This document shows positions 6,390-47,451 of a DNA stretch of 64,000 nt, in pieces. A program made the translations under genes and the position numbers. Under the pieces are notes generated by a model. It was not told the DNA's origin and searched no databases. It saw only the letters and a program-made list of their open reading frames with translations. Every line of letters begins with the position of its first letter. Position 1 is the stretch's first letter. The stretch is from Thermodesulfobacteriota bacterium (GTDB lineage: Bacteria > Desulfobacterota_D > UBA1144 > Nemesobacterales > CSP1-2), in contig DATMAT010000057.1 in the NCBI GenBank assembly GCA_035559815.1, positions 6,359 through 70,358 on the forward strand. Reading direction: 5' to 3'.

Positions 6390-7169
6390 ATGAAATTAGA
6401 CGGAAAGGTAGCCGTTGTAACCGGGGCGGCAAGCGGCATCGGACTGGCCATAGCCGAGGGACTAGCTAAAGAGGGTGTAAATATAACCATAGCCGATTTG
6501 GACGGTGAAGGAGGGAAGAAGGCTGTAGAGAAAATTCAAAAACTGGGTAGAGACGGTCTTTTCGTCAAAACCGATGTCACCAAGCGCGAGGACTGTAAGA
6601 ATCTAATCGCCGAGACCATGAAGAAGTTTGGTCGAATCGATATTCTGGTCAACAATGCCGGGCTACAGCACGTATCCCCGATCATTGATTTTCCGGAAGA
6701 GAAATGGGACCTGCTCATTGGGGTTATGATTACCGGCCCTTTCCTCTGCACCAAATATGCACTTCCACACATGATAAAACAAAAATGGGGAAGGATAATA
6801 AACATATCTTCCATACACGGGATTATTGCCGCTAAATTCAAATCCGCTTACGTTTCGGCAAAGCACGGCGTGATCGGTCTTACCAAGGTAACCGCGTTAG
6901 AGATGCTAGAACATGGAATAACCGCAAACGCTATATGCCCCACATTCGTGCGTACTCCACTCGTAGATAAACAGATAGACGACCAAGCCAAGGCCCACGG
7001 CATACCCAGGGAAGAAGTGCTCGAAAAGGTAATCCTGGCCGAGGCCCCTATGAAAAGGATGCTCGAACCGGAAGAGGTGGCAGACCTGGTTGTTTATTTG
7101 TCCGGCGAGTCGGCCCGTAACATCACCGGGTCGGCAATAACCATAGATGAGGGATGGACGGCGCAGTAA
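6390..7169 (+). CDS. bdhA: 3-hydroxybutyrate dehydrogenase-like short-chain dehydrogenase
   Basis: 259 aa. TGAASGIGLAIA cofactor motif, NNAGLQHVSPIIDFP, catalytic YVSAKHG, and a C-terminal IDEGWTAQ typical of BdhA-type SDRs. Confidence 0.75.
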   Translation: MKLDGKVAVVTGAASGIGLAIAEGLAKEGVNITIADLDGEGGKKAVEKIQKLGRDGLFVKTDVTKREDCKNLIAETMKKFGRIDILVNNAGLQHVSPIIDFPEEKWDLLIGVMITGPFLCTKYALPHMIKQKWGRIINISSIHGIIAAKFKSAYVSAKHGVIGLTKVTALEMLEHGITANAICPTFVRTPLVDKQIDDQAKAHGIPREEVLEKVILAEAPMKRMLEPEEVADLVVYLSGESARNITGSAITIDEGWTAQ

Positions 7170-7206
7170 AAAGAGATGTCTAAACTCACTTTAGTTGAGG
7201 TTTATA

Positions 7207-33179: not shown

Positions 33180-33536
33180 TTATTGGCAAAACTTATCTAC
33201 CGTACAAATATCATAGGTATCACAGAAAGGCCCCCATGAAAACGGCCAGCAATCCGTCACCGGGGAACATTTCTTTGCACACCTACCGCTGCTACACTGA
33301 TTATTACTCTCGCACCGGCTCCCTCTGGGGAGATTACTACCGGAGGGTGGTGGGGGTTGGTCAGCACCTCCGTTCCCCACAGGCCTACTAAAAAGCCACT
33401 GAAGGAGTTGGTCCAAAAATTGCGGACTAACCACATCTCCCGGCAATAGTGAACGTGAGGATCTCTGTTGGTAGTAACCTCTTGTTTTATATAGCGATAC
33501 CTCCGCTGTAAACCCTGGAAGTGTAGATATTCTCAT
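33180..33536 (-). CDS. Leader-bearing Cys-rich protein P9 (118 aa)
   Basis: AAGGAGG Shine-Dalgarno. N-terminus MRISTLPGFTAEVSLYKTRGYY. C-terminal 8-Cys region CESNNQCSSGRCAKKCSPVTDCWPFSWGPFCDTYDICTVDKFC. Confidence 0.7.
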   Translation of the reverse strand: MRISTLPGFTAEVSLYKTRGYYQQRSSRSLLPGDVVSPQFLDQLLQWLFSRPVGNGGADQPPPPSGSNLPRGSRCESNNQCSSGRCAKKCSPVTDCWPFSWGPFCDTYDICTVDKFCQ

Positions 33537-33620: not shown

Positions 33621-34094
33621 CTAAACAAAACAGATGCCCCCATATCCGGGTAGCGTCACAGTGGAACAGGACGCACCGACAAAGGGAATCGGAACACAAA
33701 TTCTATTTCTGCAGAGGCAGGGAGTAGTAGAGAAAAATGTCATAATTGCAGTTCCGGCGATCTGTCCCGATACGCTCGATGTGCGTGCTATAGCGCCCGG
33801 CATATATGCAATCAAGTTACGATCACATTGGCAATCAAGATATCCGCGGCGACCGTAGCAGAGGTCATGTTCCCTACATACTGCATCGACTGCGTCTATG
33901 GGCGGTGTATTTCCGGTTGGATCACCGAATCCGGGCCCGCAGTAATTGCCGTAAACCGGGACGCTGAGTTGTTGCGGCAATACCGGATCTTGTTTGGAGC
34001 GTAGGTTTATCTTTACGCCTTTATTGTCAATGCCGTAACGCTTTATTTGCCTGCCTAAGCTGGCCTCCGCTTTAAATCCTGGCACCTTGTTCAT
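33621..34094 (-). CDS. Leader-bearing protein P8 with a phospholipase-A2-like domain (157 aa)
   Basis: AAAGGAG Shine-Dalgarno. N-terminus MNKVPGFKAEASLGRQ. YCGPGFGD, then about 17 aa, then CREHDLCY, which is the secreted-PLA2 Ca-loop and His-Asp motif arrangement. Confidence 0.7.
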   Translation of the reverse strand: MNKVPGFKAEASLGRQIKRYGIDNKGVKINLRSKQDPVLPQQLSVPVYGNYCGPGFGDPTGNTPPIDAVDAVCREHDLCYGRRGYLDCQCDRNLIAYMPGAIARTSSVSGQIAGTAIMTFFSTTPCLCRNRICVPIPFVGASCSTVTLPGYGGICFV

Positions 34095-34118: not shown

Positions 34119-34925
34119 TCACCGGTCGTAGTAAGGTGACATCTTTGTAACCAAGAACGGAAACTCCGACCACAAAAGCGCAATGGCACCTGTTACAAAT
34201 GGGGCTGCAGCACTAGTTTCTCCAAATGTGAGCGACTTGCCATTAGCCCCGAGGCTGGTAATGTTGTCGCCGGGAGCGCTTAGACCTCGCTTTCCGATAG
34301 AACTTCCTAGGTTCGAGTAGTTAATCGGTCTACCTTGAAGGTCGCAGGCAACAACCGGAATAACCCACGTGTGACCGGTAACGGCAGAACTTCCGATAGT
34401 CCCCTGATTCCCAGCCGCCGCAACAACAATAACACCACCCCTTGCAGCATAATCTAGAGCCTTTTCTAATTCGCGCTCACCTTTAGATGATGGTTGTGCA
34501 AGTGCAGCGCTTAGGTTTATTACACGCGCACCTGCATCAATGGTCTCTATGATTGCCCCTGCAAGCTCCTCTGGGGTTGCGCTTGGCAGGGATTTAGCGG
34601 GCTCACCCCAGGTCTGTCTGTTTCCCGATGCCCTCTCTGAAAAAATGGGACGTACAAGCAGTGTGCAATCAGGACAGATTGCCGGAGCTAGAGAACCCCT
34701 CCTACCGCACAAGATGCCTGCCACAAACGTCCCATGCATACAGGCAGCACTGCTTGCTACGGTGTATGTCCCATCCAGTTTTCCAGGAACCTCGCGGATA
34801 TTTTCACCTGTAAGGCTGGGATGGTTAATTATGATGGGGCCATCTATTAACCCAACTGTAATTTCGGGTCTACCGCTTGTGAGTTCCATCAATGCTGTGA
34901 GCTTGACCACATCCAAAGGATTCAT
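34119..34925 (-). CDS. Subtilisin S8 peptidase, second copy, C-terminally truncated and fused to the tail of the PatG-DUF-like gene (possibly decaying)
   Basis: 268 aa, highly similar by eye to the peptidase at 41599-42495 up to LLWSEFP. It then ends FLVTKMSPYYDR, identical to the last 12 aa of the protein at 40062-41006. GLIDGP, HGTFVAG and AAAGNQG are kept, but the Ser motif reads GETSAAAP (Gly to Glu). No obvious Shine-Dalgarno. Confidence 0.65.
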   Translation of the reverse strand: MNPLDVVKLTALMELTSGRPEITVGLIDGPIIINHPSLTGENIREVPGKLDGTYTVASSAACMHGTFVAGILCGRRGSLAPAICPDCTLLVRPIFSERASGNRQTWGEPAKSLPSATPEELAGAIIETIDAGARVINLSAALAQPSSKGERELEKALDYAARGGVIVVAAAGNQGTIGSSAVTGHTWVIPVVACDLQGRPINYSNLGSSIGKRGLSAPGDNITSLGANGKSLTFGETSAAAPFVTGAIALLWSEFPFLVTKMSPYYDR

Positions 34926-35001: not shown

Positions 35002-35283
35002 TGCCATTGTCTTACAAAGAATAGGTTATTGTCAAGGAAAATTTTTTCTCCCTACTTTACTTCTGAGGAAGATGAAAATTACGTAGATACTGTAAAATTT
35101 TTGAGAATGTAGAAAGAGGTGAGTTAAAAGCTATAACAAGCAAAGTCCCCGACTTCACTCAGATAGCTGTAGGAGTTTTGAGGAAGGTGAGAACTTTTCT
35201 TACAAACGATCTGGATTTCAAGGAAATAGAGAGCATAAGAGTTATACAATTAAGTAACTTTAAAACGGTCAAGCAACCTTAAA
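35002..35283 (+). pseudogene. Degraded PIN-domain (VapC-like) remnant
   Basis: Open frame without a start codon reads ...ERGELKAITSKVPDFTQIAVGVLRKVRTFLTNDLDF. The PIN-like ending KEIESIRVIQL is only reached after a 1-nt shift in an A-run near 35220. The N-terminal catalytic region is absent. Confidence 0.3.
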
Positions 35284-35512
35284 TGTCTTTCCGATAAGAA
35301 CGAGTCCTTCTAACTCTTCTCTCTCAAGCTTTCTTCTAATCTCGTCAAATTTCCTTACAGTATCGGGTGCGTAGAATCTCTTACCACATTTTAGACATAC
35401 CTCAAGCCATAACCCTAAGAACTGCCGTGTTAGTTCCACCTCATAGGAGCTTATCAACTTCCTTTTCGACGATTTCCCCTCCACACACAGGACATTTATC
35501 AAATAGCTTCAT
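35269..35512 (-). pseudogene. YgiT-type zinc-finger (MqsA-like antitoxin) gene with an internal frameshift
   Basis: ATG at 35512 overlaps the upstream stop as ATGA and encodes MKLFDKCPVCGGEIVEKEVDKLL, then stops at 35441-35443. The second zinc knuckle (EVCLKCGKRFYAPDTVRKFDEI) continues in another frame, which is the listed ORF 35269-35502. Confidence 0.5.
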
Positions 35513-35847
35513 CCCTTTGTTAAAACCTCAATAATATTTTTCATATTCTCAAATACTTCTTCTACCGATGGCTCTTCACACGGCACATGCTTTCCTGCCT
35601 CCCCAAAGGGATGATAGTGCCATCCCTTCAGATTATCAATTCCATAAATCCTCTCGTTCTTATGTATCAGTGCAAAATCTTTCCTTTCAGTCTCACAGTT
35701 AGCATAAATGTCTATCAGTAAATCTTGTTGAAAAGTAATTCGAACATATAGGTGAGTATTTCGAACTATATTGTATTGAAGCGTAACTAGAGGGAAGAAT
35801 TTCTTAGAGGCGTTATTTATCTCTTCTAAGAAGCGATTTAAATCCAA
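35509..35847 (-). CDS. DUF6516/TumE-like putative toxin
   Basis: 112 aa. RIYGIDNLKGWHYHPFGEAGKH resembles the DN..H.HP...H core I associate with TumE-family proteins. Translationally coupled to the zinc-finger gene. Confidence 0.4.
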   Translation of the reverse strand: MDLNRFLEEINNASKKFFPLVTLQYNIVRNTHLYVRITFQQDLLIDIYANCETERKDFALIHKNERIYGIDNLKGWHYHPFGEAGKHVPCEEPSVEEVFENMKNIIEVLTKG

Positions 35848-35859
35848 AAAGGCACCTTT

Positions 35860-36189
35860 CTACTCTAGGTTTTTAAGTAGTTCAAGCCATTTTTTCTTCT
35901 CAGCCTCTAATCCTTCCCAGACCATGTAATGCCTCTCTACCCGATGAGAGTACTTGTTCTCTATTTCTCCTCTCTCCCAGGCATCTGCAAATTCATTAAA
36001 GGTGCTCCCATATTTTACCTCAAACTTGTAAATTTCCTCTTCACATTCCCGGAGACGCCTAGCCAGATCAGACTTTATCAATTTGAGTATTTTTTCTCCC
36101 GGTGTATCTCCTTCAACATAATCGAAAAATTCGAGTATCTCTTTAGATAGGTCTAACGTAGGCATCTTATTTTCCTTATTTTGACTCAA
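35860..36189 (-). CDS. Hypothetical small helical protein in the TA islet
   Basis: 109 aa, 12 nt upstream of the TumE-like gene. No recognisable domain. Confidence 0.35.
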   Translation of the reverse strand: MSQNKENKMPTLDLSKEILEFFDYVEGDTPGEKILKLIKSDLARRLRECEEEIYKFEVKYGSTFNEFADAWERGEIENKYSHRVERHYMVWEGLEAEKKKWLELLKNLE

Positions 36190-36245
36190 TTAACTACACA
36201 GATTCTACCTTCCTATAATGACAAATGTCAAAAAACTAACTCCAT

Positions 36246-36539
36246 CTAGTGTTCTTCTCGTTCTGCGACAAAGTCCGCCTGTGGTGAGCAAAGTCGAACC
36301 ACTGTCAGCGAGCCAGGAATCTTCGAGAGAGCTTTCCTCACCGCCTCGAGGCTTATGCTCTCATCCACCTCGGCGGCATAGAGTTGCAAGCATTCGACAA
36401 CTAGCCATTCCTCCTCCGAAGGGATTGCTGGCAACTTAGACACGATTAAGGTGACGCGCTCGTGCTCACGGAGGTCAAGCGGTTCCAGCAGACGTAATAC
36501 ACCATTCTCATAAACCGCTTCAAGCCTTTTACTCATCAC
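36246..36539 (-). CDS. DUF104 (AF2212-like) antitoxin-family protein
   Basis: 97 aa. N-terminal LEAVYENGVLRLLEPLDLREHERVTLIV is the typical DUF104 motif. Confidence 0.5.
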   Translation of the reverse strand: MMSKRLEAVYENGVLRLLEPLDLREHERVTLIVSKLPAIPSEEEWLVVECLQLYAAEVDESISLEAVRKALSKIPGSLTVVRLCSPQADFVAEREEH

Positions 36540-36681: not shown

Positions 36682-36930
36682 TCAGAAACAGATCCAACGG
36701 CAGTATCCACCCCAATGAGGCAGGCACACCCGGACGCATGAGGGCTCCACAATAGGCCACCGAAGCAAGTCTGGCCTAAAGAACTGTGTATCTGTGAAGA
36801 GCAATTGCGCTGGATATATGGTTACGTTAGCTTGGTTCAGAAGAGTGATCATCTGGTAATGTTCACTTGTCTTATAGAGTGATACTTCTGCGGTGAATCC
36901 CGGCATCTTCATCTGGTTCATTTTATTCAT
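36682..36930 (-). CDS. Leader-bearing Cys-rich peptide P7 (~82 aa; start uncertain, 36930 or 36921)
   Basis: N-terminus MNKMNQMKMPGFTAEVSLYKTSEHYQ. Putative core after IYPAQ is LLFTDTQFFRPDLLRWPIVEPSCVRVCLPHWGGYCRWICF (4 Cys). Confidence 0.7.
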   Translation of the reverse strand: MNKMNQMKMPGFTAEVSLYKTSEHYQMITLLNQANVTIYPAQLLFTDTQFFRPDLLRWPIVEPSCVRVCLPHWGGYCRWICF

Positions 36931-37029
36931 CCCCACTTCAACAAAATTTTTTGACCTCACTTCCGCTAGGAGATATGTCGTTGCACTTAGTAAATCGTTT
37001 TTCACCCTCCTTAATCAGAGAGCGAAGAG

Positions 37030-37995
37030 TCAGACCGGGATACAACGCCCCGAATCGAAGAGGCAAGTCCAACCAGGTGGACAGCCACTGTTGCCACAAC
37101 ACGACCAACCCGGCGGAGCACACTTTGTGCCATTAGCACAGCAGGAGTGACCAGGCGGGCAGCAACCCCGCCCGCAACACACAGGAGCCCACGACGGACA
37201 GCAATGGTCGCCACAACACCGCTCACCAGATACGCAGCAGCGGTTGCCACAAGTCTGACCCGCCGGGCAACAACCACCGCCGGTGCATACTTCTCCTGGC
37301 CCACAGCAGTGATTGTTACAGACTCGACTAGGTGGACAGCAGCCCTCGATGGTGCACTGCTCTCCCGGAGCACAGCGACGGTTATTGCAGACTCGATCTG
37401 CAGGAGCACAGCCGTCCAGGGTGCACACTTCTTCCGGCGCACAACAACGCTCGTTGCAGACTCGATCTTTAGGGCAGAAGCCGTCCCTAGTGCACTGCTG
37501 CCCATCTGGCACATAACAACCGAAACCGAAGCAGCATCGTTGACCTGGCGGACAGCAGCTTAATGTATATCCGGTTGCCGTTTCATTAAGGATGTGGCAG
37601 CATTCATGGTCTCCCGGGCAACATTCCGGACGCTTTCCGATGCGCCCGCACAACTTCATTTCAGGTGGACAGAGAGGAGGAATGAACTCGCATTGGACCA
37701 AGCACTGTACTCTGCATTCATCACGCAGAATCGCGATTGGAACATCCGGATTATCAATGCGTCCAGCTTTGACGCAGGCACCTACGCAGCGATCAACACA
37801 GGGTTTTTTATGGCAATATTCCATGCACTGATGGTCAGGGTGGCCAGCCCTGAGGCAATCGTCCATACAACGATTCACACCGTTGTATGCCGGGTATATA
37901 GTCTCATTCACTTGGCTAGAAGTCCCAATAGTATAGTAGTGCCCGCTCGTTTTATAGAGTGACCCTTCTGCGGTAAATCCTGGTATCTTGTTCAT
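37030..37995 (-). CDS. Leader-bearing giant Cys-rich repeat protein P6 (321 aa)
   Basis: N-terminus MNKIPGFTAEGSLYKTSGHYY. About 58 Cys by my count, with CCPPG..CC motifs. Three tandem 23-aa units RVCN..CCAPEEVCT.DGCAPAD are also visible as repeated TTGCAGACTCGATCT at nucleotide level. Confidence 0.75.
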   Translation of the reverse strand: MNKIPGFTAEGSLYKTSGHYYTIGTSSQVNETIYPAYNGVNRCMDDCLRAGHPDHQCMEYCHKKPCVDRCVGACVKAGRIDNPDVPIAILRDECRVQCLVQCEFIPPLCPPEMKLCGRIGKRPECCPGDHECCHILNETATGYTLSCCPPGQRCCFGFGCYVPDGQQCTRDGFCPKDRVCNERCCAPEEVCTLDGCAPADRVCNNRRCAPGEQCTIEGCCPPSRVCNNHCCGPGEVCTGGGCCPAGQTCGNRCCVSGERCCGDHCCPSWAPVCCGRGCCPPGHSCCANGTKCAPPGWSCCGNSGCPPGWTCLFDSGRCIPV

Positions 37996-38064
37996 TTAAT
38001 TCGCCCCTAATTTCAATCATAATATGTCGTGCCTAATCACGGCCTTCACCCGGGTGCATAAGGT

Positions 38065-38388
38065 CTAAGTTCGAGTAGGGCTGCATCCTTTGAGGCATTC
38101 TCGATAATTCTCATCGCAGATAATACAGTGGGTAGATCCCTTCGGGTTTTCAGGCGTGCCTTCACAACCCTCCAAACACAGGACCCAGGCTATATAGCAA
38201 AGACCTCTACAAAGCGAACGCCCGATCCCGCCAAAAAGCCCAGAACCGGGCGATACAGGTAATGGATTAATAGTCAGTTGAGAAATAACTCTTTGCCCAC
38301 AGTTGCTATAAGCTTGCATCGCTATAGACTGGTACTGCTCACTCGTCTTATAAACCGATGCCTCTGCTGTGAATCCCGGTGTTTTCAT
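38065..38388 (-). CDS. Leader-bearing Cys-rich protein P5 (107 aa)
   Basis: N-terminus MKTPGFTAEASVYKTSEQYQ. C-terminal region LCRGLCYIAWVLCLEGCEG...HCIICDENYRECLKGC. Confidence 0.7.
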   Translation of the reverse strand: MKTPGFTAEASVYKTSEQYQSIAMQAYSNCGQRVISQLTINPLPVSPGSGLFGGIGRSLCRGLCYIAWVLCLEGCEGTPENPKGSTHCIICDENYRECLKGCSPTRT

Positions 38389-38441
38389 TTCATCAACCCC
38401 CATTTATTTCAGATTATCCCTACAGCAGCCGACCTAAACCC

Positions 38442-38693
38442 TTAGGCCATTCCCCCGCCACCACAGACCCCAAAGCACGCACCGCACGTCAAAAAATCTC
38501 CTGGGTCTGGCACAGGCGACATAACAAGGAAAGCCGCACAGGCTAGGCAAGCGGTCATGCAAAACCTGCTTCTGAACATCGCCGGAACGATCCCACTTTC
38601 TTTCATATCCGAACTATAAGAAACCGTATATCGTCCAGTAGACCTGTATACAGAGGTTTCTGCAGTAAATCCAGGCAAATTCATTTTACTCAT
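38442..38693 (-). CDS. Leader-bearing Cys-rich peptide P4 (83 aa)
   Basis: GGAGGTG Shine-Dalgarno. N-terminus MSKMNLPGFTAETSVYRSTGRY. Hydrophobic Cys/Gly-rich core FCMTACLACAAFLVMSPVPDPGDFLTCGACFGVCGGGGMA. Confidence 0.7.
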   Translation of the reverse strand: MSKMNLPGFTAETSVYRSTGRYTVSYSSDMKESGIVPAMFRSRFCMTACLACAAFLVMSPVPDPGDFLTCGACFGVCGGGGMA

Positions 38694-38748
38694 TTTATTC
38701 ACCTCCTTCACACATTGTTCAAAACCGAGATGAGTGCAGTAATCGGTC

Positions 38749-39126
38749 TTACCAGCCGAACCCGACACCTAGCTCGGTGTCGCAGGTCGTATCTGGCACG
38801 TCCCATTCACCCCAAATATTAAACCAAGTGTTTTTACACCGGTCTGGAGGCCGACCTTCAAGACCCGGAGTCGTTCGACAAGCTTCTTCCCACGATACGC
38901 CCCAAGGGATACCCCACAATATGGCTGAAAACTGTCGCCGTCCGCAGCCTGACCCTTCCGTCCACCAACAGCCGCGCTTAGTACAGTGATCTCTCTTGAA
39001 GCTACCCCAGGTCTGGGCCGGCACAAGGCGTCCCATTTCCGTCGGCATGTACTGAAAACCCGCTCGATACTGATGGCTCCCGCGATATAGCGAAGCCTTT
39101 GCGGTAAATCCAGGTATTTTGTTCAT
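38749..39126 (-). CDS. Leader-bearing Trp/Cys-rich protein P3 (125 aa)
   Basis: GGAGGTG Shine-Dalgarno. N-terminus MNKIPGFTAKASLYRGSHQY. The core has 6 Cys and many Trp (GCWWTEGSGC...ILWGIPWGVSWEEAC...NTWFNIWGEWD). Confidence 0.7.
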   Translation of the reverse strand: MNKIPGFTAKASLYRGSHQYRAGFQYMPTEMGRLVPAQTWGSFKRDHCTKRGCWWTEGSGCGRRQFSAILWGIPWGVSWEEACRTTPGLEGRPPDRCKNTWFNIWGEWDVPDTTCDTELGVGFGW

Positions 39127-39177
39127 TTCATTCACCTCCTTTTTTCACTCCCTCACCAGACCCTAGAGACCGAACAC

Positions 39178-39588
39178 TCAGATCAGGGTGCAGAAAGAAG
39201 GACTACATCCTATGAAGGGTGCACATATTCTCCTGCACTTTGTCCCCGCCGGACAACAGCCCTCGTTATTACAGCAGGACGTACCGGGCGGGCAACAACC
39301 ACGAGCACAGCAAGGATGACCAGGGGGACAAGAGTGGGTGCCGCAGTTGGGTCGAGGTGGAGGAGGTGGGGGTGGAGTACAAGATACTTCTTTACAAATA
39401 GGTCCTCCTGTTTCTGGGTCATATCCAAAGCAACAGGTCTTCTGCCCATTTTCACATGGCGTGCACCCTTTAATCTGTTGTAGTACTAAGCCGCTAACTG
39501 ACTTGCTAGTCCAAGTCGATTCAAGCGCATAAATCCCAGCCGTCCTGTAGAGCGAAGCCTCTGCGGCAAATCCCGGCATTTTGCTCAT
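39178..39588 (-). CDS. Leader-bearing Cys/Pro-rich protein P2 (136 aa)
   Basis: GGAGGTG Shine-Dalgarno. N-terminus MSKMPGFAAEASLYRTAGIY. The core has a poly-Pro tract PPPPPPPRP and CCPPGTSCCNNEGCCPAGTKC repeats similar to P6. Confidence 0.7.
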   Translation of the reverse strand: MSKMPGFAAEASLYRTAGIYALESTWTSKSVSGLVLQQIKGCTPCENGQKTCCFGYDPETGGPICKEVSCTPPPPPPPRPNCGTHSCPPGHPCCARGCCPPGTSCCNNEGCCPAGTKCRRICAPFIGCSPSFCTLI

Positions 39589-39657
39589 TTGACTCACCTC
39601 CTTTCTCTTTTTCCTCCGTCCGTATAGAATTCACCTGATAAACCGCCGCGGTCTCAA

Positions 39658-40026
39658 CTAGTCAATCGCTACCAAGCTGTCAACACAGTCACGCCACGGC
39701 TCACTTGCCGGCACCCAACCCCAATAGCAGCCAGGCGGTTCAGGACAGATCTTTGCATACTTAAACCATTGGCATATCCGGCACTCGGTTTGAAAAGTCA
39801 GACCCCAAAATTTCCATGTGCTGGTCGTTTTATCCCAGCACAATTTTTTCATCGTAAACACTACGCCCGGCATTGATGTTGGCACGTCAACGGTAGATAG
39901 TGTGCCCATCAGTCCCTGGGTAAGAACCAACGCACCTACTCTCACGCCTGCACGATTCGGGGCTACTGCATAGCTCATGGCTGATTTGTAGAGCGAGACC
40001 TCTGCTGTAAACTCAGGCAATTTCAT
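39658..40026 (-). CDS. Leader-bearing Trp/Cys-rich protein P1 (122 aa)
   Basis: GGAGGTGA Shine-Dalgarno. N-terminus MKLPEFTAEVSLYKSAMSY. Core LCWDKTTSTWKFWGLTFQTECRICQWFKYAKICPEPPGCYWGWVP...DC. Confidence 0.7.
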   Translation of the reverse strand: MKLPEFTAEVSLYKSAMSYAVAPNRAGVRVGALVLTQGLMGTLSTVDVPTSMPGVVFTMKKLCWDKTTSTWKFWGLTFQTECRICQWFKYAKICPEPPGCYWGWVPASEPWRDCVDSLVAID

Positions 40027-40061: not shown

Positions 40062-41006
40062 TCACCGATCATAATACGGCGACATCTTTGTAACCAGGAA
40101 CGGAAACTCCTCGGTCACATCCACACGGGTAAAGAACTTCTCGGTAACGTCCGTCTGACGATTGGTGAAGGAGAAAATGACATCTACAACCTTGCGTGTG
40201 CCGCTGAGAGGCGAATGACGAACTTCTACCGCTGTCAAAGAAGAGTTTTGAGCAAAAGCCTCCGCAGCTTTAGCATAGATGGCGTTGTATCGTACTGCCA
40301 GATAGTTTAAAGCACGGTGGTCGTCAGTGGCTCCGGCATTGTCAGCTATCTGCATTATCCTCATGAATAGCTCCTCTGCTGCTGGGGTGAACTCCTTTGC
40401 TGACATCTTTTCCGGCTTAGGAATAGATTTGATTAGAGAATCGATATCGAATGAATACATCTGGTCGAACACAACAATAGGCACCATGAGTCCATTGCAC
40501 ATCTCTGGCGGGGCGATTGGCCCTCTCATGCCAATAACCACATCAACATCAGTGGGGCGTGGAGCGGGACGTAAGGCCTCCACTAACATATCCAGGTCCG
40601 CAGGGTCGCGCGGCACCAGAATGTATGTCTCCAAACCCTCAATGGTTAAAACCCAGCACATCTGTCTCACCAGGTAGCGGTTCTGTCTATGGGTCAGAAC
40701 CTTGTGGAGTGCCTCTCGGTCGGTAAGCCCGGCTGTCTTTTCCCGCCCTGTAACTTGGGCGAATTCCTTCTCCACAGCTAAACGAGGAAAGCGGGCCTCG
40801 ACCCTGCCCAGGGCATAAACGAAGCTGGGTGTAACTCCGCCATTTGACCCGGTGGAGCTTCCGCATGTAGGACACCCTCCCCCTCCAGCTTGGGTGGGAA
40901 GAATAGTTCCAGTACGACTTTCAGAAGAGGATACTACTGTTGGTGAGTCTTTCACGTTAACGGCTTGCTCTCCCATCTGTTCCTTCGATTCAACATTTTC
41001 TTCCAT
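40062..41006 (-). CDS. Protein resembling the C-terminal DUF of cyanobactin proteases PatA/PatG (PatG_C/PatG_D-like)
   Basis: 314 aa from the ATG preceded by AAGGAGGAG. FVYALGRVEARFPRLAVEKEF, CWVLTIEGLETYILVP, LMVPIVVFDQMYSF, DHRALNYLAVRYNAIY and FTRVDVTEEFPFLV follow the motif order I recall for the PatG DUF (VYALG..GYDFG.EARRD.F ... DRALNF ... DVS..PV). Recalled from memory, not verified. Confidence 0.5.
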   Translation of the reverse strand: MEENVESKEQMGEQAVNVKDSPTVVSSSESRTGTILPTQAGGGGCPTCGSSTGSNGGVTPSFVYALGRVEARFPRLAVEKEFAQVTGREKTAGLTDREALHKVLTHRQNRYLVRQMCWVLTIEGLETYILVPRDPADLDMLVEALRPAPRPTDVDVVIGMRGPIAPPEMCNGLMVPIVVFDQMYSFDIDSLIKSIPKPEKMSAKEFTPAAEELFMRIMQIADNAGATDDHRALNYLAVRYNAIYAKAAEAFAQNSSLTAVEVRHSPLSGTRKVVDVIFSFTNRQTDVTEKFFTRVDVTEEFPFLVTKMSPYYDR

Positions 41007-41199: not shown

Positions 41200-41418
41200 T
41201 TATCTCGAACGCCTGCCAGAGAAAACCAGCCAACCGTTGAGTGTGGAGGCGCGACGTTCACATCCGCCACACGGTTTAATCCCAATAGTAGACGTGACTC
41301 GCTTAATCGCATCACCCAGTCCAATTTCCTCATCGCTAATGAAACCAGGAAGACGAACCCGGTAAGGCTGTCCTTTAGTCTTACTTCTTTGACCATTTCT
41401 TGTTTCTTCCTTTTTCAT
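41200..41418 (-). CDS. Small basic protein with an LPGF motif and a C-x-x-C pair (72 aa)
   Basis: AGGTGA Shine-Dalgarno. MKKEETRNGQRSKTKGQPYRVRLPGFISDEEIGLGDAIKRVTSTIGIKPCGGCERRASTLNGW. Lies between the S8 and DUF genes. Confidence 0.4.
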   Translation of the reverse strand: MKKEETRNGQRSKTKGQPYRVRLPGFISDEEIGLGDAIKRVTSTIGIKPCGGCERRASTLNGWLVFSGRRSR

Positions 41419-41450
41419 GACATTCACCTATGTTACGCAAATATACATTA

Positions 41451-41598: not shown

Positions 41599-42495
41599 TC
41601 ACCTCCTTAAACCAGACCTTATAATCTGATACGCCCCCCATGCATCAAGCAAGGGTGGAACTACCGTATTTCTCCTTCGCCCGTTCGACCGTGTAATCAC
41701 GACTTTCATATCAGCACCGGTAGCTTTTGGGAACTCTGACCAAAGCAGCGCAATAGCCCCCGTCACAAAGGGAGCCGCAGCGCTCGTTCCGCTGAACGTG
41801 AGTGGTTTGCCATCGGCTCCGAGGCTAGTAATGTTGTCGCCGGGGGCGCTCAGACCTCGTCTCCCTATCGAATTTCCCAGATTGGAGTAACTAATCGGTC
41901 TACCCTGAAGGTCACAGGCAACGACCGGGATAACCCAAGGGTGACGGGTGATAACAGTGCTACCAACTGCTCCCTGATTTCCCGCCGCTGCTACAATCAA
42001 AACGCCTCTCTTTGATGCATAATTCAAAGCCCCTACTAACTCTCGTTCACCTGTGGAAGATAGCTGCGCCATAGCTGCACTCAGGTTTATCACGTGCGCT
42101 CCCGCATCAATGGTCTCGATTAATGCCGCTGCTAGTTCATCGGGAGTGGTACTGGGCATGGGCTCTAGATGCTGGCTGCGGCTATTTCCATTTCCTGACA
42201 TCGTCTCAGCAAAAATAGGACGCACCAACAACGTGCAATCAGGACAGATAGCCGGAGCTACAGAACCCCTCTTTCCGCACAAAATTCCTGCCACGAATGT
42301 TCCATGCAAACAGGCGACACTACTTGCCTGTGCACATGCACCCGCAAGTTTTCCAGGGACCTCACGAATGTCTCCACCTGAAAGATCCGGATGGTCTAAT
42401 AACACGGGCCCGTCAATCAGACCAACTACTATCTCTGGCCTCCCGCTGGCAATATCCATCAAAGCGGTGAGCCTGATTAAATCCAGATGATTCAT
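41599..42495 (-). CDS. Subtilisin-family S8 peptidase without a signal peptide (PatA-like)
   Basis: 298 aa from ATG 42495 (GAGGTGAGG Shine-Dalgarno). Catalytic contexts VGLIDGPVLLDHP (Asp), CLHGTFVAG (His), AAAGNQG (Asn) and FSGTSAAAPFVTG (Ser). No hydrophobic N-terminus. Confidence 0.8.
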   Translation of the reverse strand: MNHLDLIRLTALMDIASGRPEIVVGLIDGPVLLDHPDLSGGDIREVPGKLAGACAQASSVACLHGTFVAGILCGKRGSVAPAICPDCTLLVRPIFAETMSGNGNSRSQHLEPMPSTTPDELAAALIETIDAGAHVINLSAAMAQLSSTGERELVGALNYASKRGVLIVAAAGNQGAVGSTVITRHPWVIPVVACDLQGRPISYSNLGNSIGRRGLSAPGDNITSLGADGKPLTFSGTSAAAPFVTGAIALLWSEFPKATGADMKVVITRSNGRRRNTVVPPLLDAWGAYQIIRSGLRR

Positions 42496-42683
42496 GCGTG
42501 GATTCCTCACCTCAACCCAGTGATAGGAGTTAAAAACTAGATAAAGACTAAAGGAGAACGAGTACTTACAGTTAATCTTTCAAGTGAGCAGAAATAAACA
42601 ACCGGCGGTTATCGTTAATAACCTGATGTTGTGGACAGAAGTTGCTTAGGCTCTTTATAGTTATTGCTCTCCCTCTCAGGGTG

Positions 42684-42753: not shown

Positions 42754-43695
42754 TCAACTGCCCGCCAGAGCCTTAATCATGATCTTCATCACCTCGACAT
42801 TGCTCTGCTTTCCCACCGGGTTTGGGACGATGATCGGAAGTTGAACCCCTGCTTCTCTGTAAGCCTCGAGTCTTTCACGGCACCTTTCGGCAGGGCCAAC
42901 CAAAGCCACCGCGTCCAGTAGGTCATCGGAAAACGCCTCGGCTGGGCTTACACCAGATTTAATCTTCTCCACCACATCGCCAAATCCTAAGTTTGTAATC
43001 AAGCGCTGGTAGAAAGGAAAGCGGGCATAGCCGGAAAGACCGCGCTTTCCGGCGTTTCTGGCAGCTTCCAAGTCGTCGGAGATAAAACAAGGGATTCCAT
43101 TGGTGATGTCGATATCCGAAGGAGCACGGCCGGCCTTTTCCGCACCTCTTTTAACCGCGCCTATCAGCTTCTTCAAATGACCGGGAGTAGCCATATAGGG
43201 CATGATGCCGTCTGCTACCTCGCCGGCCAGTTCCGCCGCTTTTTCGGTCAGCACCGCCGTGTATATCGGGAGATAAGGGAGTTGTCTTTTGATTGTCAAG
43301 AGTGGCGAGCTTCCATCAGCGAAGGACCTGACCGCTGTCACATATTTTCGCATTTCCTCGATCGGGTCTTTCATGTCAATTCCGAAGCGGTCATTCACCG
43401 GCTTATGACTGACACCCAACCCAAGCACCATCCTTCCGCCTGAAATTTCCTGAACAGTAAGGGCCTCGGCCGCACATATAACCGGCTGGCGCATGTAGAT
43501 ATTGGTTATCCATGTACCCACTTTAATTTTCGAGGTCGCCTCGGCAAAAACCTGGGCGTTAGCCAGGGCGCTGTAGGGTGGCACCTCCGGGGAAAATATC
43601 GCCTCGAATCCCCCAGCCTCCGCTTCTTTGGCTAAAGCGCGAAGGTCGTCTACGCTGCATCCCCATACCGGTGAAATGGTCGCTATCCGTTTCAT
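42754..43695 (-). CDS. Luciferase-like (LLM class) flavin/F420-dependent oxidoreductase
   Basis: 313 aa. TIM-barrel LLM pattern (FEAIFSPE..., GRMVLGLGVSHKP). Confidence 0.75.
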   Translation of the reverse strand: MKRIATISPVWGCSVDDLRALAKEAEAGGFEAIFSPEVPPYSALANAQVFAEATSKIKVGTWITNIYMRQPVICAAEALTVQEISGGRMVLGLGVSHKPVNDRFGIDMKDPIEEMRKYVTAVRSFADGSSPLLTIKRQLPYLPIYTAVLTEKAAELAGEVADGIMPYMATPGHLKKLIGAVKRGAEKAGRAPSDIDITNGIPCFISDDLEAARNAGKRGLSGYARFPFYQRLITNLGFGDVVEKIKSGVSPAEAFSDDLLDAVALVGPAERCRERLEAYREAGVQLPIIVPNPVGKQSNVEVMKIMIKALAGS

Positions 43696-43811
43696 TCATC
43701 TTCTCCTCCTTTTATTTTGGCCACGAATTCTCACCAATAGTCTCGAATGAAAAATGAAAATGAATAAAAAACTGGTATTAGCATTTATAGATTCTAAATA
43801 AGACGCAAAAC

Positions 43812-43896
43812 GTCATTGCCGCATGCATTTGCGGTAATCCAAAGCACTGATGGATGCCCGATTGATCCGCCGGTTTAAACGGGGGACGGGCATGAC
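43812..43896. repeat. MITE-like element (GTCATTGCCGC...GCGGTAATCC...ATGGATGCCCGATTGATCCGCCGGTTTAAACGGGGGACGGGCATGAC)
   Basis: Combines modules seen separately at 15686-15802 and 15817-15856. Confidence 0.6.
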
Positions 43897-43975
43897 CATC
43901 ATAAGACATACAGAACAGGAGTGAACGAGGTTTTAATTTGTGATAATTCGTGTTCATTCGTGGCTAAATAGTCAT

Positions 43976-44869
43976 CTAATACTGATTAATCACATCCCGG
44001 TAAAAATCGGGGCGGAGCAAAGACTCATCTCCTCTTTCCAAGACCGCTCTTATCTCTTCCAAGACCCTTTCCTTATCCTGGGGGAATCTTGCTTTGATAG
44101 GAAGATAATTAGAGATGTGATTCGAAAAGAAATACCCGTCAGTCAGGTTTGTATTCTCGACGATAATTTCTAGCTCTTTTATCATCTGAAACTTATCCGG
44201 GAGTTTGAACTTTCCGTCAAGCCACTCCTGGTAAATCGGAGCCCCCGGGCGGACCTGAAGGGAAAGTGCCCCTACATACTCAGGGTCAGTATCGGTCAAG
44301 AGCCTTCCGGTCGCATATGCATGCTCAAGGCTTCTATCCACCCCGCCAACCCCGAGAAGAACCATGGCCGAGTTTTTGACCCCGGCCTCTTTAAGGATTT
44401 TTGATGCTCTTACCGTCTCCTCGTAATTTGCCCCTTTTTTAATCCTTTCTAGAACTATATCGTCTCCGCTTTCAAATCCGATGTAAACCATCTCCAACCC
44501 GAGGTCCCTCAGCACTTTTAAATTCTCAGCTCCTTTTCTCAGGATGTCGCTAACGTTTGCATACATGGTAATTCGCTGCAAGTCCGGACGTTTCTCCTTT
44601 AAATACTGCAAAATCTCGACCAGCTTTTTCTGGGGCATGACCAGGGCGTTGCCATCGGCGATGAACACCCGGTTGAAATCATATCTCTCCACAGCTTCAT
44701 CAATAATAGTCTTGATCTCATCTATGGGGCGCATACGAAACCTTTGGGTATCTTTCCGATACATGGCGCAGTAGGTGCACTCGTTATGAGAGCAGCCTAT
44801 CGTAGCCTGAAGGATGAAGCTATTTGCCTCGCTGGGAGGCCGGAAAAGCGGCATGGAATATTCAATCAT
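43976..44869 (-). CDS. Radical SAM protein
   Basis: 297 aa. The cluster motif reads GCSHNECTYC, which is C-x4-C-x2-C rather than the canonical C-x3-C-x2-C, followed by a TIM-barrel-like GFESGDD segment. Confidence 0.7.
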   Translation of the reverse strand: MIEYSMPLFRPPSEANSFILQATIGCSHNECTYCAMYRKDTQRFRMRPIDEIKTIIDEAVERYDFNRVFIADGNALVMPQKKLVEILQYLKEKRPDLQRITMYANVSDILRKGAENLKVLRDLGLEMVYIGFESGDDIVLERIKKGANYEETVRASKILKEAGVKNSAMVLLGVGGVDRSLEHAYATGRLLTDTDPEYVGALSLQVRPGAPIYQEWLDGKFKLPDKFQMIKELEIIVENTNLTDGYFFSNHISNYLPIKARFPQDKERVLEEIRAVLERGDESLLRPDFYRDVINQY

Positions 44870-45068
44870 GACCCTAGAAGTTAACGTAAAAAGGGGGTTA
44901 ATGCAAGCAATCCTCCCTAAACTTTACAAAGGAGAATCATTCGTTATAATCAAAGCACCATGGAACAGCACGAGAAAGAAGGAACAATCTACATACTGGC
45001 AATCATAGGTTTTATTGCGTCAATCTTAATCCTTGTATCTTTGACGCACGTAATCTTTGATTAAAGCA

Positions 45069-45557
45069 CTATTCCGATACAGCCCATCTTATTATGTGTA
45101 GTATCATTTCTTCGGGGTCTAATATGGACCCTGTATTATCTTTCAGTAAGTAACCGTCTTCTGTTTTAACAAAAGAGACTTTAATAAGCTGTCTAGCCCT
45201 GGTGAGTAGGTTCTCGCCCGAACCGGAATTTTGTCTCTTTTTGCCGAATACCACCACCTGACCTGGCTCATCGTCGAGAAAAACTACAAACTTCTCCGGA
45301 GCAACCAGACAAAACCCGACCCGTTTTCCGGAGAGATTAAGGAAAAGGGCCAAGAGTTCCCCCGGCAAACTATAAACAGAGAGCCCTTCATCCCCCACCA
45401 ACTGGTTGTAAAAGCTTACCGCCAACTCCGCAATTTTGAGTAGGCCGTTCATAACCTCTTTTACATCGTCTGGTGCGGATTCGGCTTTCCGGTCCGCCGT
45501 TTTCGTTTTTAGTTTTTCCCTAGCCAAACTCATCACTTCCTCACGAAAGTTATTCAT
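45069..45557 (-). CDS. Hypothetical protein
   Basis: 162 aa from the ATG preceded by GGGAGAG. No recognisable domain. Confidence 0.35.
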   Translation of the reverse strand: MNNFREEVMSLAREKLKTKTADRKAESAPDDVKEVMNGLLKIAELAVSFYNQLVGDEGLSVYSLPGELLALFLNLSGKRVGFCLVAPEKFVVFLDDEPGQVVVFGKKRQNSGSGENLLTRARQLIKVSFVKTEDGYLLKDNTGSILDPEEMILHIIRWAVSE

Positions 45558-45646
45558 ATTGTCTCTCCCATGTGTATTTATAATTTTATTATGTGTCATT
45601 TATCCTATGACAAAGTCCTTCAAATTAATCAGACCCCATACCGTAT

Positions 45647-45780
45647 GTCATTCCCGCGAAAGCGGGAATCCAGTTTTTTAAAAGATGGATTCCCGATTAG
45701 TACATTCGGGAATGACAGATTGGTAGATCCCGCTTAAGCTTGTACCCGAAAGCATTAATCGGGTAACGTGCGGGAATGAC
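45647..45780. repeat. MITE-like elements with GTCATTCCCGCG / CGCGGGAATGAC-type inverted ends
   Basis: GTCATTCCCGCGAAAGCGGGAATCCAG...ATGGATTCCCGATTAGTACATTCGGGAATGAC, followed by GATCCCGCTTAAGCTTGTACCCG...GTGCGGGAATGAC. Both modules occur fused in the copy at 15686-15802. Confidence 0.65.
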
Positions 45781-45842
45781 TTTCTTTTTGAGCATAGTAG
45801 CCATTTGGATGATCAACACTAGCTCACCATTCAGTTACAATA

Positions 45843-46184
45843 ATGATAATGAAGATTCCTATCCCCGACGGGTCGAGCTTTCTAGGCTATCTCACCACGA
45901 AGGGAAGAGTAACAGGGAAAGAGCATACAGTAAAATTACGATTAGTCTTCTACAAGGGAAGATTCTTTGCATCCAGGAGAAGCCTGGCCGGAGACTGGTT
46001 AAAAAATGTAATGACCAATCCATCGGTTTCCGTTGAAGTTAACGGGACGGTGGTCGAGGGTCTGGCCAGACTGGTCGAAGACGACGAACTATCACGAAAG
46101 ATATCGGAGTTGAAATATGACGATATACGAAGAGAAGAAAGCAGGGTGGTAGTAGAGATTACCCCTATCGAATCAACCGAATAG
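45843..46184 (+). CDS. Small DUF385-like (deazaflavin-dependent nitroreductase family) protein
   Basis: 113 aa. LTTKGRVTGKEHTVKLRLVFYKGRFFASRRS...DWLKNVMTNPSVSVEV resembles the DUF385 beta-barrel pattern. Confidence 0.4.
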   Translation: MIMKIPIPDGSSFLGYLTTKGRVTGKEHTVKLRLVFYKGRFFASRRSLAGDWLKNVMTNPSVSVEVNGTVVEGLARLVEDDELSRKISELKYDDIRREESRVVVEITPIESTE

Positions 46185-46209
46185 TACTAAGAAAACCAAG
46201 ACATGAGCC

Positions 46210-47451
46210 TTATTCAAGACCCTTCACTATTTGTTCCAAATCCGTATTAGGGTCCTTCAGCCCGTCCTCGTATTTTCTTATGTCAATGTCTCGAATTTGT
46301 ATTAGTTCCCGCACTGCCCTTACCCCCTTTCCACCCGGCTCGATGAGAAAGGCGCCAACTATTCGGCCATCTCGAACGGCAAAAGAACCGACCGGGGGTT
46401 CCCCAGGCATTCCCCTGACCCAATGTTCTTGCCCGAATTCGAGGGCACCTACAAAAATAAGCGGTAGACCAAAAATGGCCGAGTCATAACCGGTTACCTG
46501 TGAGTAGGGAATTTTTGCCCCGGCCATATTTCTTCCGGCAATTCTCCCCTGAAACTGAGCGTTCTCTATGTGACCGACCAGATGCTTTTCTCCCAGAATT
46601 AAATCATCAAACTCGGCCAGGTCTCCGGCGGCATAAACCCCGTCTATGCTGGTCTCTAGAAATTCATTAACCCGAATGCCCCGTTCAACCGATATGTCCG
46701 TACCCTTGAGGAAATCGATGTTCAGGTCAAGCCCTATACCCACCCCCACCAAATCCCCCTCATAAGTCTTTCCGCTCTCGGTTTTCACCGAACCTACTGT
46801 TCCACCCTTGCCCTCAAACTCGACCACCTTCTCGTTTGGAAAGACCTCGACCCCGCCCTCCACGAGTTTCTCTATCAGATAATTCCCTAGAGGCTCAGGT
46901 ATTAGCGTCTGCCAGACATATTTCTCCATCATAATGAGCTTTACCGGAACTCCCACTTCACGAAGAGCAACCGCCAGCTCGACCCCTATGAAGCTTCCGC
47001 CTATGACCACAGCCTGCCTTGAATTATTAGCCGCTTTTATGATTTGATTAGAGTCATCAAGGGTCCTGAGATAATAAATGCCCTCTAGGTTTCTGCCTGG
47101 AATATCAAATTTCCTCGGCCTGCCTCCGGTGGAAATTAGTAGTTTTTCATAATTGATCTCCGCCCCGTCGTCGAGTGTCACCCTTTTTTCCTGGAAACCA
47201 GACCTAACCGCACGCCTGCCCTTGATGAAAATCGCCTCGTTCTTATCAAAGAAGTCCTCCTTCACCAAATAAAGGGCATCTTCGCCAAACCGTCCTTGAA
47301 TGTATCCCTTGGTCAGAAGGGGAAGCGAATAGGTGCGATACGGCTCGGCCCCGACGATGACTATCTTCCCCTGCTTGTCCTCCTGCCTGATACCCCTCAC
47401 CGCCCAGGCCCCGGCTGGTCCTGCTCCCAGAATTAAATATTTGGTCTGCAC
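46210..47451 (-). CDS. FAD-dependent pyridine nucleotide-disulfide oxidoreductase (ferredoxin/rubredoxin-reductase-like)
   Basis: 413 aa. LILGAGPAGAWA, a second Rossmann segment VVIGGSFIGVELA, and VYAAGDLAEF. Confidence 0.8.
   Translation of the reverse strand: MQTKYLILGAGPAGAWAVRGIRQEDKQGKIVIVGAEPYRTYSLPLLTKGYIQGRFGEDALYLVKEDFFDKNEAIFIKGRRAVRSGFQEKRVTLDDGAEINYEKLLISTGGRPRKFDIPGRNLEGIYYLRTLDDSNQIIKAANNSRQAVVIGGSFIGVELAVALREVGVPVKLIMMEKYVWQTLIPEPLGNYLIEKLVEGGVEVFPNEKVVEFEGKGGTVGSVKTESGKTYEGDLVGVGIGLDLNIDFLKGTDISVERGIRVNEFLETSIDGVYAAGDLAEFDDLILGEKHLVGHIENAQFQGRIAGRNMAGAKIPYSQVTGYDSAIFGLPLIFVGALEFGQEHWVRGMPGEPPVGSFAVRDGRIVGAFLIEPGGKGVRAVRELIQIRDIDIRKYEDGLKDPNTDLEQIVKGLE

Follow-up and report, generated by a model that had tools for sequence, protein, structure and literature searches.

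Removal of an N-terminal leader from a peptide precursor by a subtilisin-like (S8) serine protease is known from several bacterial pathways, two of which provide the closest described parallels to the locus considered here. In cyanobactin biosynthesis, enzymes of the PatA type cleave after the sequence G(L/V)E(A/P)S (PMC10885120), and in the class I lanthipeptides the leader is taken off by the LanP proteases (NisP, ElxP), of which ElxP is cytoplasmic (PMC10885120). The present work concerns a stretch of 64,000 nucleotides from a Thermodesulfobacteriota bacterium (contig DATMAT010000057.1 of assembly GCA_035559815.1, positions 6,359 to 70,358 of the forward strand), which is referred to below, at its full length, as the window. 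A gene block on its minus strand, running from 42510 down to 33180, contains one cassette of putative processing genes, the remnant of a second and nine leader-bearing paralogs (P1–P9). Judged from their sequences, these genes probably encode a PatA-like leader peptidase system that is split into separate proteins and that would free hypervariable, disulfide-rich peptides from their precursors, with the first of two leader motifs (motif 1) docking and the second (motif 2) being cut. The main constituents of the block are listed below; the E-values given for the precursors are those of a leader hidden Markov model (HMM) built from the nine leaders of the window.

41599-42510, minus strand: S8A, PatA-type S8 protease (Pfam Peptidase_S8, 2.5e-27)
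41200-41427, minus strand: small CxxC protein of ~70 aa in a 75-codon open reading frame (ORF), recognized by synteny and sequence conservation
40062-41006, minus strand: domain of unknown function (DUF) protein, PatG_D + PatG_C, 314 aa (Pfam E-values 1.4e-32 and 5.5e-35)
39658-40026, minus strand: P1 precursor, MKLPEFTAEVSLYKS...ALVLTQ then core (leader HMM 7e-17; own ribosome-binding site)
39178-39588, minus strand: P2 precursor, MSKMPGFAAEASLYRT...GLVLQQ then Cys/Pro-rich core (leader HMM 3e-18)
38749-39123, minus strand: P3 precursor, MNKIPGFTAKASLYRG...RLVPAQ then core (leader HMM 2e-19)
38442-38693, minus strand: P4 precursor, MSKMNLPGFTAETSVYRS...GIVPAM then core (leader HMM 9e-18)
38065-38388, minus strand: P5 precursor, MKTPGFTAEASVYKT...QRVISQ then core (leader HMM 2e-19)
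37030-37995, minus strand: P6 precursor, 321 aa, MNKIPGFTAEGSLYKT...ETIYPA then very Cys-rich repetitive core (leader HMM 7e-19)
36682-36912, minus strand: P7 precursor, MKMPGFTAEVSLYKT...VTIYPAQ then core (leader HMM 1e-19)
33621-34094, minus strand: P8 precursor, MNKVPGFKAEASLGRQ...PVLPQQ then core resembling secreted phospholipase A2 (PLA2), 10 Cys (leader HMM 8e-16)
33180-33536, minus strand: P9 precursor, MRISTLPGFTAEVSLYKT...DVVSPQ then core (leader HMM 5e-17)

This arrangement has much in common with the cyanobactin pathway. Among solved structures the S8 domain is nearest to PagA and PatA, the DUF protein has the PatG_D/PatG_C fold, the enzymes appear cytoplasmic with no dedicated transporter, each locus has several precursors that are conserved in the leader but hypervariable in the core, and an E-[A/P]-S-like element lies within the leader. 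However, the protease and the DUF are here separate polypeptides, usually with the ~70-aa CxxC protein between them, and the leader has no sequence relation to the E-peptides of the cyanobactins. The products also differ, being Cys-rich and of 35 to >400 aa in contrast to the 6–20-aa (cyclic) peptides of the cyanobactins, and the cassette occurs in more than 15 phyla whereas cyanobactins are confined to the cyanobacteria. For comparison we collected 80 loci from contigs representing one genome per species, using the DUF protein as the only probe. Across these loci no PatG-type macrocyclase was found, each cassette having a single S8 type, which in S8A is devoid of a capping-helix insert, and no conserved family corresponding to the heterocyclase (PatD) or the prenyltransferase (PatF) was present within ±10 kb. 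Of the cyanobactin recognition sequences (RS), RSI (LAELSEEAL) and RSIII (AYDG) are not in the leader alignments, and of RSII only the E-[AV]-S part was matched.

With the LanP systems the cassette shares an S8 protease that takes off an N-terminal leader, but no LanB, LanC, LanM or other modifying enzyme is conserved here, the protease is nearer to PatA than to other subtilisins and the leader is bipartite. The prochlorosin arrays and the precursors of conotoxins and defensins provide a further parallel, by analogy only, since they likewise combine one conserved leader with many hypervariable cores, several paralogs per locus and frameworks of paired Cys (4–10 Cys here). There is no sequence or enzymatic relation to any of them, and the protease is the sole conserved enzyme in our loci; prochlorosins require ProcM, and conotoxins use endoplasmic reticulum signal peptides.

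A leader of two motifs and its hypervariable cores

A six-frame scan of the window with the pattern [GE]F.A[EK].S returned nine matches on the minus strand, every one of them at the N-terminus of an ORF, and a single spurious match on the plus strand. The N-terminal consensus of the nine paralogs is M-x-[MIL]-P-G-F-T-A-E-x-S-L-Y-K-T-x3-Y, the P, F, A, S and Y being invariant in both alignments of the paralogs (A1 and A2), and each paralog has its own GGAGG-type ribosome-binding site with an ATG located 2–5 codons 5' of the P-G-F. The N-termini quoted for P1–P7 in an earlier note made from the sequence alone (the original prediction) are correct in these alignments, and its placement of these seven genes within 36682-40026 agrees with our coordinates. 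Over the ten codons for P-G-F-T-A-E-x-S-L-Y, the proportion of synonymous differences among the nine paralogs (pS) was 0.72, which is saturated, and that of nonsynonymous differences (pN) was 0.15. Because pS is saturated while pN has stayed at 0.15, motif 1 is under selection at the peptide level, as the original prediction had concluded from the PGFTAE codons, and the paralogs are old; their likeness in motif 1 is not due to recent duplication of the DNA. As the cores cannot be aligned between paralogs, no core dN/dS could be obtained, and the following 17 codons (the spacer), which are in fixed register, were used in their stead. The pN of this spacer is 0.71, so that motif 1 is the more constrained of the two. 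In the wider family the logo of motif 1 is M-[NKS]-[MIL]-P97-G81-F95-T75-A96-E80-A57-S90(A10)-L76-Y68-[KR]-[TS]-x3-Y87, where the numbers are percentages, and conservation extends across ~20 residues beginning 2–6 residues after Met1.

The second motif was located by a position-weight search, the sole restriction of which was a position between +16 and +58 after the motif-1 Phe. It was found in 83% of 190 family members as opposed to 2% of shuffled controls, with the logo [V69/I25]-[V31/I20/L10]-P82-[Q57/A35]. Its Pro is 27–33 residues past the motif-1 Phe, mostly 28–30. A bipartite leader, as originally proposed, is thus well supported by two motifs at fixed spacing; a looser motif had been described 15–25 residues further on, and while the recurrence of this motif is borne out, its position is far more regular than that range implied. 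The proposal that motif 2 marks the boundary between leader and core also stands, since similarity among the paralogs stops after it, with nothing alignable beyond, and the Cys-rich cores start there. In the family, the Cys content is 0.6% over residues 1–40 and 12.5% thereafter, and the first Cys comes at a median distance of 10 residues after the Pro of motif 2. In core families that recur, the conserved core starts straight after motif 2 (e.g., in VVPA followed by IPFCGNCD and VVPQ followed by YGLCDKA).

No Sec, Tat, lipoprotein or double-glycine export signal was detected in these leaders. The nine paralogs have no hydrophobic h-region (maximum Kyte-Doolittle mean over 10 residues, 0.4–1.85), no twin-arginine motif and no lipobox. 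Within the first 40 aa of the family members, the median of this maximum is 0.83 and it exceeds 2.0 in 1% of them, an RR-type motif is present in 1 of 195 and a lipobox pattern in 2 of 195. Sec, Tat and lipoprotein signal peptides were rejected on these grounds. A double-glycine (C39) leader was rejected likewise, the boundary being [VI]-[VIL]-P-[Q/A] and no ABC transporter being conserved in the flanks. These hydropathy and pattern checks agree with the original prediction, according to which Sec, Tat, lipoprotein and GG signals are all absent.

The leader belongs to a large, unnamed family that has no curated model. An exhaustive profile search of 1.84 billion cluster representatives gave 4,228 matches at E ≤ 1e-3, of which 219 reach E ≤ 1e-10, nearly all of them at residues 1–40 of proteins of 40–160 aa; the family thus numbers at least 4,228 clusters at 50% identity. 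No cluster among the 4,228 is named, and none has a Pfam domain where the Pfam column was returned. A word-indexed search found 909 proteins, and among the 120 matches listed no Pfam domain was present and those with a source name were all labelled "hypothetical protein"; a search for processing partners gave at least 8,000 matches. Neither Pfam nor NCBIfam has a leader or precursor family matching any of the nine precursors, and no paper on the cassette or the leader was found in the full-text literature, mostly without subscription journals.

The cores, in which Cys, Gly and Pro abound, are hypervariable and have a median length of 38–50 aa. Typically they comprise 35–90 aa with 4–10 Cys, and sometimes an entire toxin domain (PLA2, Fic) is present. 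Even numbers of Cys predominate in the cores (~90% overall): they make up 94% of the counts in the locus set, and in an independent metagenome set 193 counts were even and 25 odd (binomial p = 2e-33), with 4, 6 and 8 being the commonest. Such even counts indicate, at the level of sequence, that the Cys form disulfides, and disulfide pairs are favoured over Zn(Cys)4 sites because counts of 6 and 10 are abundant. A membrane-like hydrophobic stretch is present in 12 of 194 cores. In the P8 core the Ca-loop YGNYCGPG and the His-Asp motif CREHDLCY can be read directly; it matches PF08398 with 24.4 bits (cut-off 23.9) and PF00068 with 28.1 bits, which is under the 32.1 cut-off of that family. The very Cys-rich P6 gave no family in a Pfam scan, P4 is identical to the NCBI protein VNN20_14335 (P0121), and P7 has near homologues in metagenomes (P0122 and P0125). 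In one of the other loci (L063, 5998-6663, plus strand) motif 1 is joined directly to a Fic/DOC domain (Pfam, 2.6e-20) with no clear motif 2, and no S8 gene was present in the stretch of this contig that was examined, the contig extending further upstream. This fusion may be either a recombinant or true toxin cargo; the Fic domain was the sole domain recognized when ten long cargo proteins were compared with Pfam.

The putative processing cassette and its distribution

The S8A protein has 303 aa when counted from a GTG codon, although a start at Met6 (42495) is more likely. It shows no obvious signal peptide or transmembrane segment, and the catalytic residues D33, H69, N177 and S243 are present; these four positions are conserved in an alignment of 64 sequences from the window and 63 related loci. 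Its closest solved structures are PagA (4H6W, 9e-31) and PatA (3ZXX, 4H6V and 3ZXY, ~1e-29, to 8e-29), whereas the macrocyclase domain of PatG scores 4e-14, similar to generic subtilisins, in an alignment that begins only at the His. Together with the adjoining PatG_D/PatG_C gene, these values corroborate at the level of the enzyme the link to cyanobactins that had been drawn earlier. The match to TIGR03895, the PatA/PatG family (1.2e-32), covers the protease part only and is under the full-length cut-off. The spacing between Asp33 and His69 is 36 residues, and because this leaves no space for it, S8A does not have the macrocyclase capping insert. The best NCBIfam match of S8A is to the mycosins of type VII secretion, with which it shares the S8 subfamily (TIGR03921, 128 bits). 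An assignment to a mycosin/ESX system was rejected, the score being far under the cut-off of 278.75 bits and a signal peptide, a C-terminal membrane anchor and nearby ESX genes all being absent. A catalogued defence system was also rejected as an identity for the cassette, as PADLOC gives only a generic "subtilase" for the S8 protein, with the other two cassette proteins and the precursors unmatched.

The small protein has a variable basic N-terminus followed by R-L-P-G-F-x3-E-[IV]-G-L-G-D-x-[IV]-K-R-x-T-x3-G-I-x-P-C-G-G-C-x-R-R-x3-L-N-R-W, and it belongs to no family in Pfam, NCBIfam or PADLOC. Its invariant RLPGF echoes the [MIL]-P-G-F of the leader. A comparable echo of motif 2 is seen in the DUF protein, whose N-terminal tail (within residues 1–59, predicted disordered) contains I-L-P-T-Q...C-P-T-C-G. 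The homologues of this protein show the pattern [IL]-x-P-(T)-Q-x-G…C-x(1-2)-C-G in this tail, the PQ being present in 62% of 110 of them, with ILPTQ in the window copy. Its C-terminal tail (residues 300–314), F-P-F-L-V-T-K-M-S-P-Y-Y-D-R, FPFLVTKMSPYYDR, is near-invariant and also predicted to be disordered. From their sequences, these N- and C-terminal segments are likely partner-binding or processing sites, and the RLPGF and DUF N-tail echoes could be pseudo-substrates or sites of self-processing. Taken together, the three cassette proteins look like a PatA (protease plus DUF) that has been split into subunits, with a small subunit added.

The DUF protein of the window is 100% identical to a database entry labelled "hypothetical protein" (P0001). 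Homologues that are 54–79% identical to it are present in Acidobacteriota, Pseudomonadota (Nitrosospira, Methylococcaceae and many Alphaproteobacteria), Planctomycetota (Brocadia), Chloroflexota, Cyanobacteriota, Verrucomicrobiota, Bacteroidota, Actinomycetota, Nitrospirota, Spirochaetia, Ignavibacteria, Entotheonellaceae and Eremiobacterota. Besides its range of bacterial phyla (>15), the cassette extends to two archaeal metagenome-assembled genomes (MAGs) and some plasmids. In one of the archaeal MAGs (Candidatus Methanoperedens, L036) it is complete, and in the other (Nitrososphaerales, L048) the DUF gene is accompanied by weak leader matches; these copies reflect either inter-domain transfer or binning error. 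The leader HMM matches ORFs in 80 of 81 sources (the 80 loci and the window), and at E ≤ 1e-3 it recovers 201 ORFs in ~73 of the 80 loci. Nearly all of the leader-bearing ORFs come directly after the DUF gene, in its orientation and in arrays of 1–8. In 72 of the 80 loci the DUF gene is preceded by an S8 gene (50–70% identity), and in 60 the small gene (47–73% identity) lies between the two; the cyanobacterial loci and a few more have no small gene, and there the S8 gene abuts the DUF gene. All-against-all clustering of the flanking ORFs (≥120 aa, within ±10 kb) from the 81 loci revealed no further conserved family.

Two of the plasmids illustrate the setting in which the cassette travels. On plasmid pEmeITTGR7b of Sinorhizobium mexicanum ITTG R7 (L082) it is at 5734-7473, and on a plasmid of Streptomyces sp. 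NBC_01568 (L083) it is at 3189-5541, with a recombinase and a Tn3 transposase on its flanks. On both, RefSeq has labelled the genes "S8 family serine peptidase" and "hypothetical protein", and 4–5 leader-bearing ORFs are located downstream in a gap of the gene table (the PLSDB table being incomplete). Cultured carriers include, in addition to these two strains, Mesorhizobium sp. B2-1-1, several Nitrosospira/Nitrosovibrio strains and Pseudanabaena sp. lw0831, and the habitats of the carriers are soil, freshwater and wastewater. The best explanation for this distribution is that the cassette is horizontally mobile; no relative was detected in IMG/VR, and thus no carriage by phages was found.

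The remaining genes of the window that are of concern here are the second cassette and the neighbours of the block:

34119-34925, minus strand: S8B, S8 remnant of the second cassette (Pfam S8, 9.6e-26; protein and DNA comparison with S8A)
35269-36539, minus strand: four small toxin-antitoxin-like genes between the cassettes, one of them AF2212-like (DUF104-type antitoxin)
42754-47451, minus strand: luciferase-like monooxygenase, radical-SAM protein and pyridine-nucleotide-disulfide oxidoreductase, 5' of the cassette

Comparison of S8B with 41599-42510 and 40062-40100 showed 73% identity to S8A across 256 aa, and its 3' part is an in-frame join to the final 12 codons of a DUF gene (…LLWSEFP|FLVTKMSPYYDR), the fusion point being a shared microhomology, GAGTTTCC. 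S8B is therefore a deletion remnant of a diverged second cassette, from which the small gene and nearly the entire DUF gene have been lost and in which P8 and P9 have been kept. The inserted genes at 35269-36539 split the precursor array and look like toxin-antitoxin or mobile-element cargo; for three of the four no Pfam family was found. The genes at 42754-47451 were considered as a tailoring part of the cassette, of the kind known for peptides made by ribosomes and modified after translation (RiPPs), and were rejected in this role, as they recur in only 2–3 of the 80 loci and are probably unrelated neighbours. The small CxxC protein, the deletion remnant S8B and the very large and widespread family are points that go beyond the original prediction.

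Proposed leader-guided maturation and its alternatives

Leader-guided proteolytic maturation is the simplest account of this locus, which combines a PatA-type protease that has its catalytic residues intact and looks cytoplasmic, and two conserved accessory proteins, with substrates that share only a two-motif leader of fixed length. In the mechanism that we propose, motif 1 (M-x-[MIL]-PGFTAExSLYKTxxxY) would dock on the maturation complex, with the DUF protein and/or the small protein as candidate receptors. Docking would place motif 2 ([VI]-[VIL]-P-[Q/A]), ~30 residues further on, into the active site of the protease, and the Cys-free leader of ~38 residues would be removed at or beside this motif. 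The freed core would then fold with 2–5 disulfides and, once outside the producing cell, have an antimicrobial or toxin-like action. The pairing of receptor and motif, the exact scissile bond, the formation of disulfides, export and bioactivity are all parts of this scheme that we infer. A docking role for motif 1 is favoured because it is conserved across ~20 residues close to Met1, including those that would be P1'–P9' of a cut after AE[AV]S, and the tight spacing of 28–30 residues suggests that both motifs are engaged together, as by a ruler that reaches from an exosite to the active site. Motif 2 is favoured as the cut site because both the Cys-free zone and the family-wide similarity end there and the cores start there.

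In the leaders of NisA and ElxA, which are substrates of LanP enzymes, Pro is at -2 and Gln or Arg at -1. The hydrophobic-hydrophobic-P-Q (h-h-P-Q) end of the present leader resembles, by analogy, these -2 Pro/-1 Gln or Arg ends that are cut by other S8 leader peptidases, and the RLPGF and DUF N-tail echoes may point weakly in the same direction. An element of similar kind, I-L-P-Q-Q, is also found among the cyanobactins, in the conserved N-terminal part of the leader peptide NILPQQGQPVIR (PMC5108345). This I-L-P-Q-Q is similar to motif 2, for example to the V-L-P-Q-Q of P8, and the similarity is one of resemblance only. By analogy, it may hint that the DUF domains of PatA and PatG bind an h-h-P-Q element.

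A number of observations weigh against cleavage at motif 2 and release of the cores to the outside. Seventeen percent of the family members are without a clear motif 2, and the RLPGF and DUF N-tail echoes are short, imperfect and were spotted post hoc. The three conserved cassette proteins all look cytoplasmic, and the clustering of the flanks revealed no conserved transporter, thiol-disulfide oxidoreductase, immunity gene or modifying gene, which leaves export and oxidation unexplained. Lastly, the E-[AV]-S of the leader fits the known P3–P1 preference of PatA. The protease could then cut right after T-A-E-[AV]-S, removing ~11 residues, with the spacer and motif 2 being kept or trimmed in a second step. 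This alternative agrees with the PatA/PagA-like nature of the S8 protease, with the cleavage of PatA-type enzymes after G(L/V)E(A/P)S (PMC10885120) and with the family logo, in which E (80%), A/V (64%) and S (90%, with Ala in 10%) occupy the corresponding positions. We nevertheless consider it unlikely. The likeness of TAE[AV]S to the PatA site, to which the original prediction had drawn attention, holds for the E-[A/P]-S part but not for P4, which is Ala (96%) and not Leu or Val, or for P5, which is Thr and not Gly. A site that is simply cut would not usually show conservation of ≥8 residues on its P' side, as is seen here up to the Tyr at +13 (87%), and a mature N-terminus of L-Y-K-T would leave both the spacing of motif 2 and the absence of Cys ahead of it unexplained.

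In another alternative, the leader would chiefly direct export or sorting by an unrecognized secretion route, which the cassette forms or feeds, the protease removing the signal. The cores look extracellular from their even Cys counts and the secreted-type PLA2, the leader is always N-terminal and carries no Sec, Tat or lipoprotein signal, and conservation of the DUF protein between phyla is unusually high, as is expected for the component of a machine. Yet no cassette protein is obviously membrane-spanning as read from its sequence (hydropathy was computed for the precursors only), no membrane protein or ATPase is conserved in the flanks, and the hosts have differing envelopes, being diderm, monoderm and possibly archaeal, so that we regard a sorting signal as quite improbable. 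Our estimate is lower still for an intracellular conflict or defence module in which the leader would hold toxins inactive until the protease is triggered, e.g., by phage infection. Toxin-type cargo (PLA2, Fic), the mobility of the cassette (plasmids, Tn3 transposase and recombinase neighbours and the toxin-antitoxin-like genes in the window) and the weak PADLOC "subtilase" match of the S8 protein would suit such a module. However, it is rendered very unlikely by the lack of a PADLOC family for the precursors and for either accessory protein, by the absence of a sensor domain, and by arrays of up to 8–9 hypervariable peptides with paired Cys, which typify secreted bacteriocin-like products and not abortive-infection effectors. 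A true cyanobactin-like pathway, in which the variable spacer would be the core, excised and possibly macrocyclized, and the Cys-rich part a follower, is the least probable of all. It could appeal to the resemblance of motif 1 to RSII, to the Pro ahead of the putative motif-2 cut, as in PatG substrates, and to the hypervariable spacer. With a single type of protease whose 36-residue Asp-His spacing excludes the macrocyclase insert, and with no RSI, no AYDG-like RSIII, no heterocyclase, no prenyltransferase and no similarity to E-peptides, the cyanobactin pathway was rejected as an identity for the locus; moreover, C-terminal parts with paired Cys and entire enzyme domains are implausible as a discarded follower.

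Significance of the cassette and its precursor family

The locus is best filed under leader-guided maturation by a cyanobactin-type protease, a known kind of process, of which it would be a new form. A wider reading can be put forward only tentatively, and we hold it to be possible but doubtful. It views the locus as a self-contained, horizontally spreading factory of disulfide-rich peptide and mini-protein toxins, "conotoxin-like" in that a conserved pro-region is combined with a hypervariable Cys framework. In this factory the cyanobactin DUF, long unexplained and here free-standing and extremely conserved, would bind the leader and hand the substrate over to a PatA-type protease. If the wider reading is true, it would assign a function to the DUF of PatA and PatG, and it would provide a route for the release and oxidation of peptides that does not depend upon a dedicated transporter.

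If leader-guided maturation as proposed here is true, the ribosomal precursors described here would form a family of very large size, with a simple, recognizable leader and a minimal processing cassette. The leader/protease pair would then be usable as a tool for the removal of tags, and the presence of the DUF as a separate protein would offer a genetically simple setting in which to test the role of this domain in the PatA and PatG of cyanobactins. The family would also constitute a new pool of disulfide-rich bacterial peptides, which could be mined by means of the leader profile alone.

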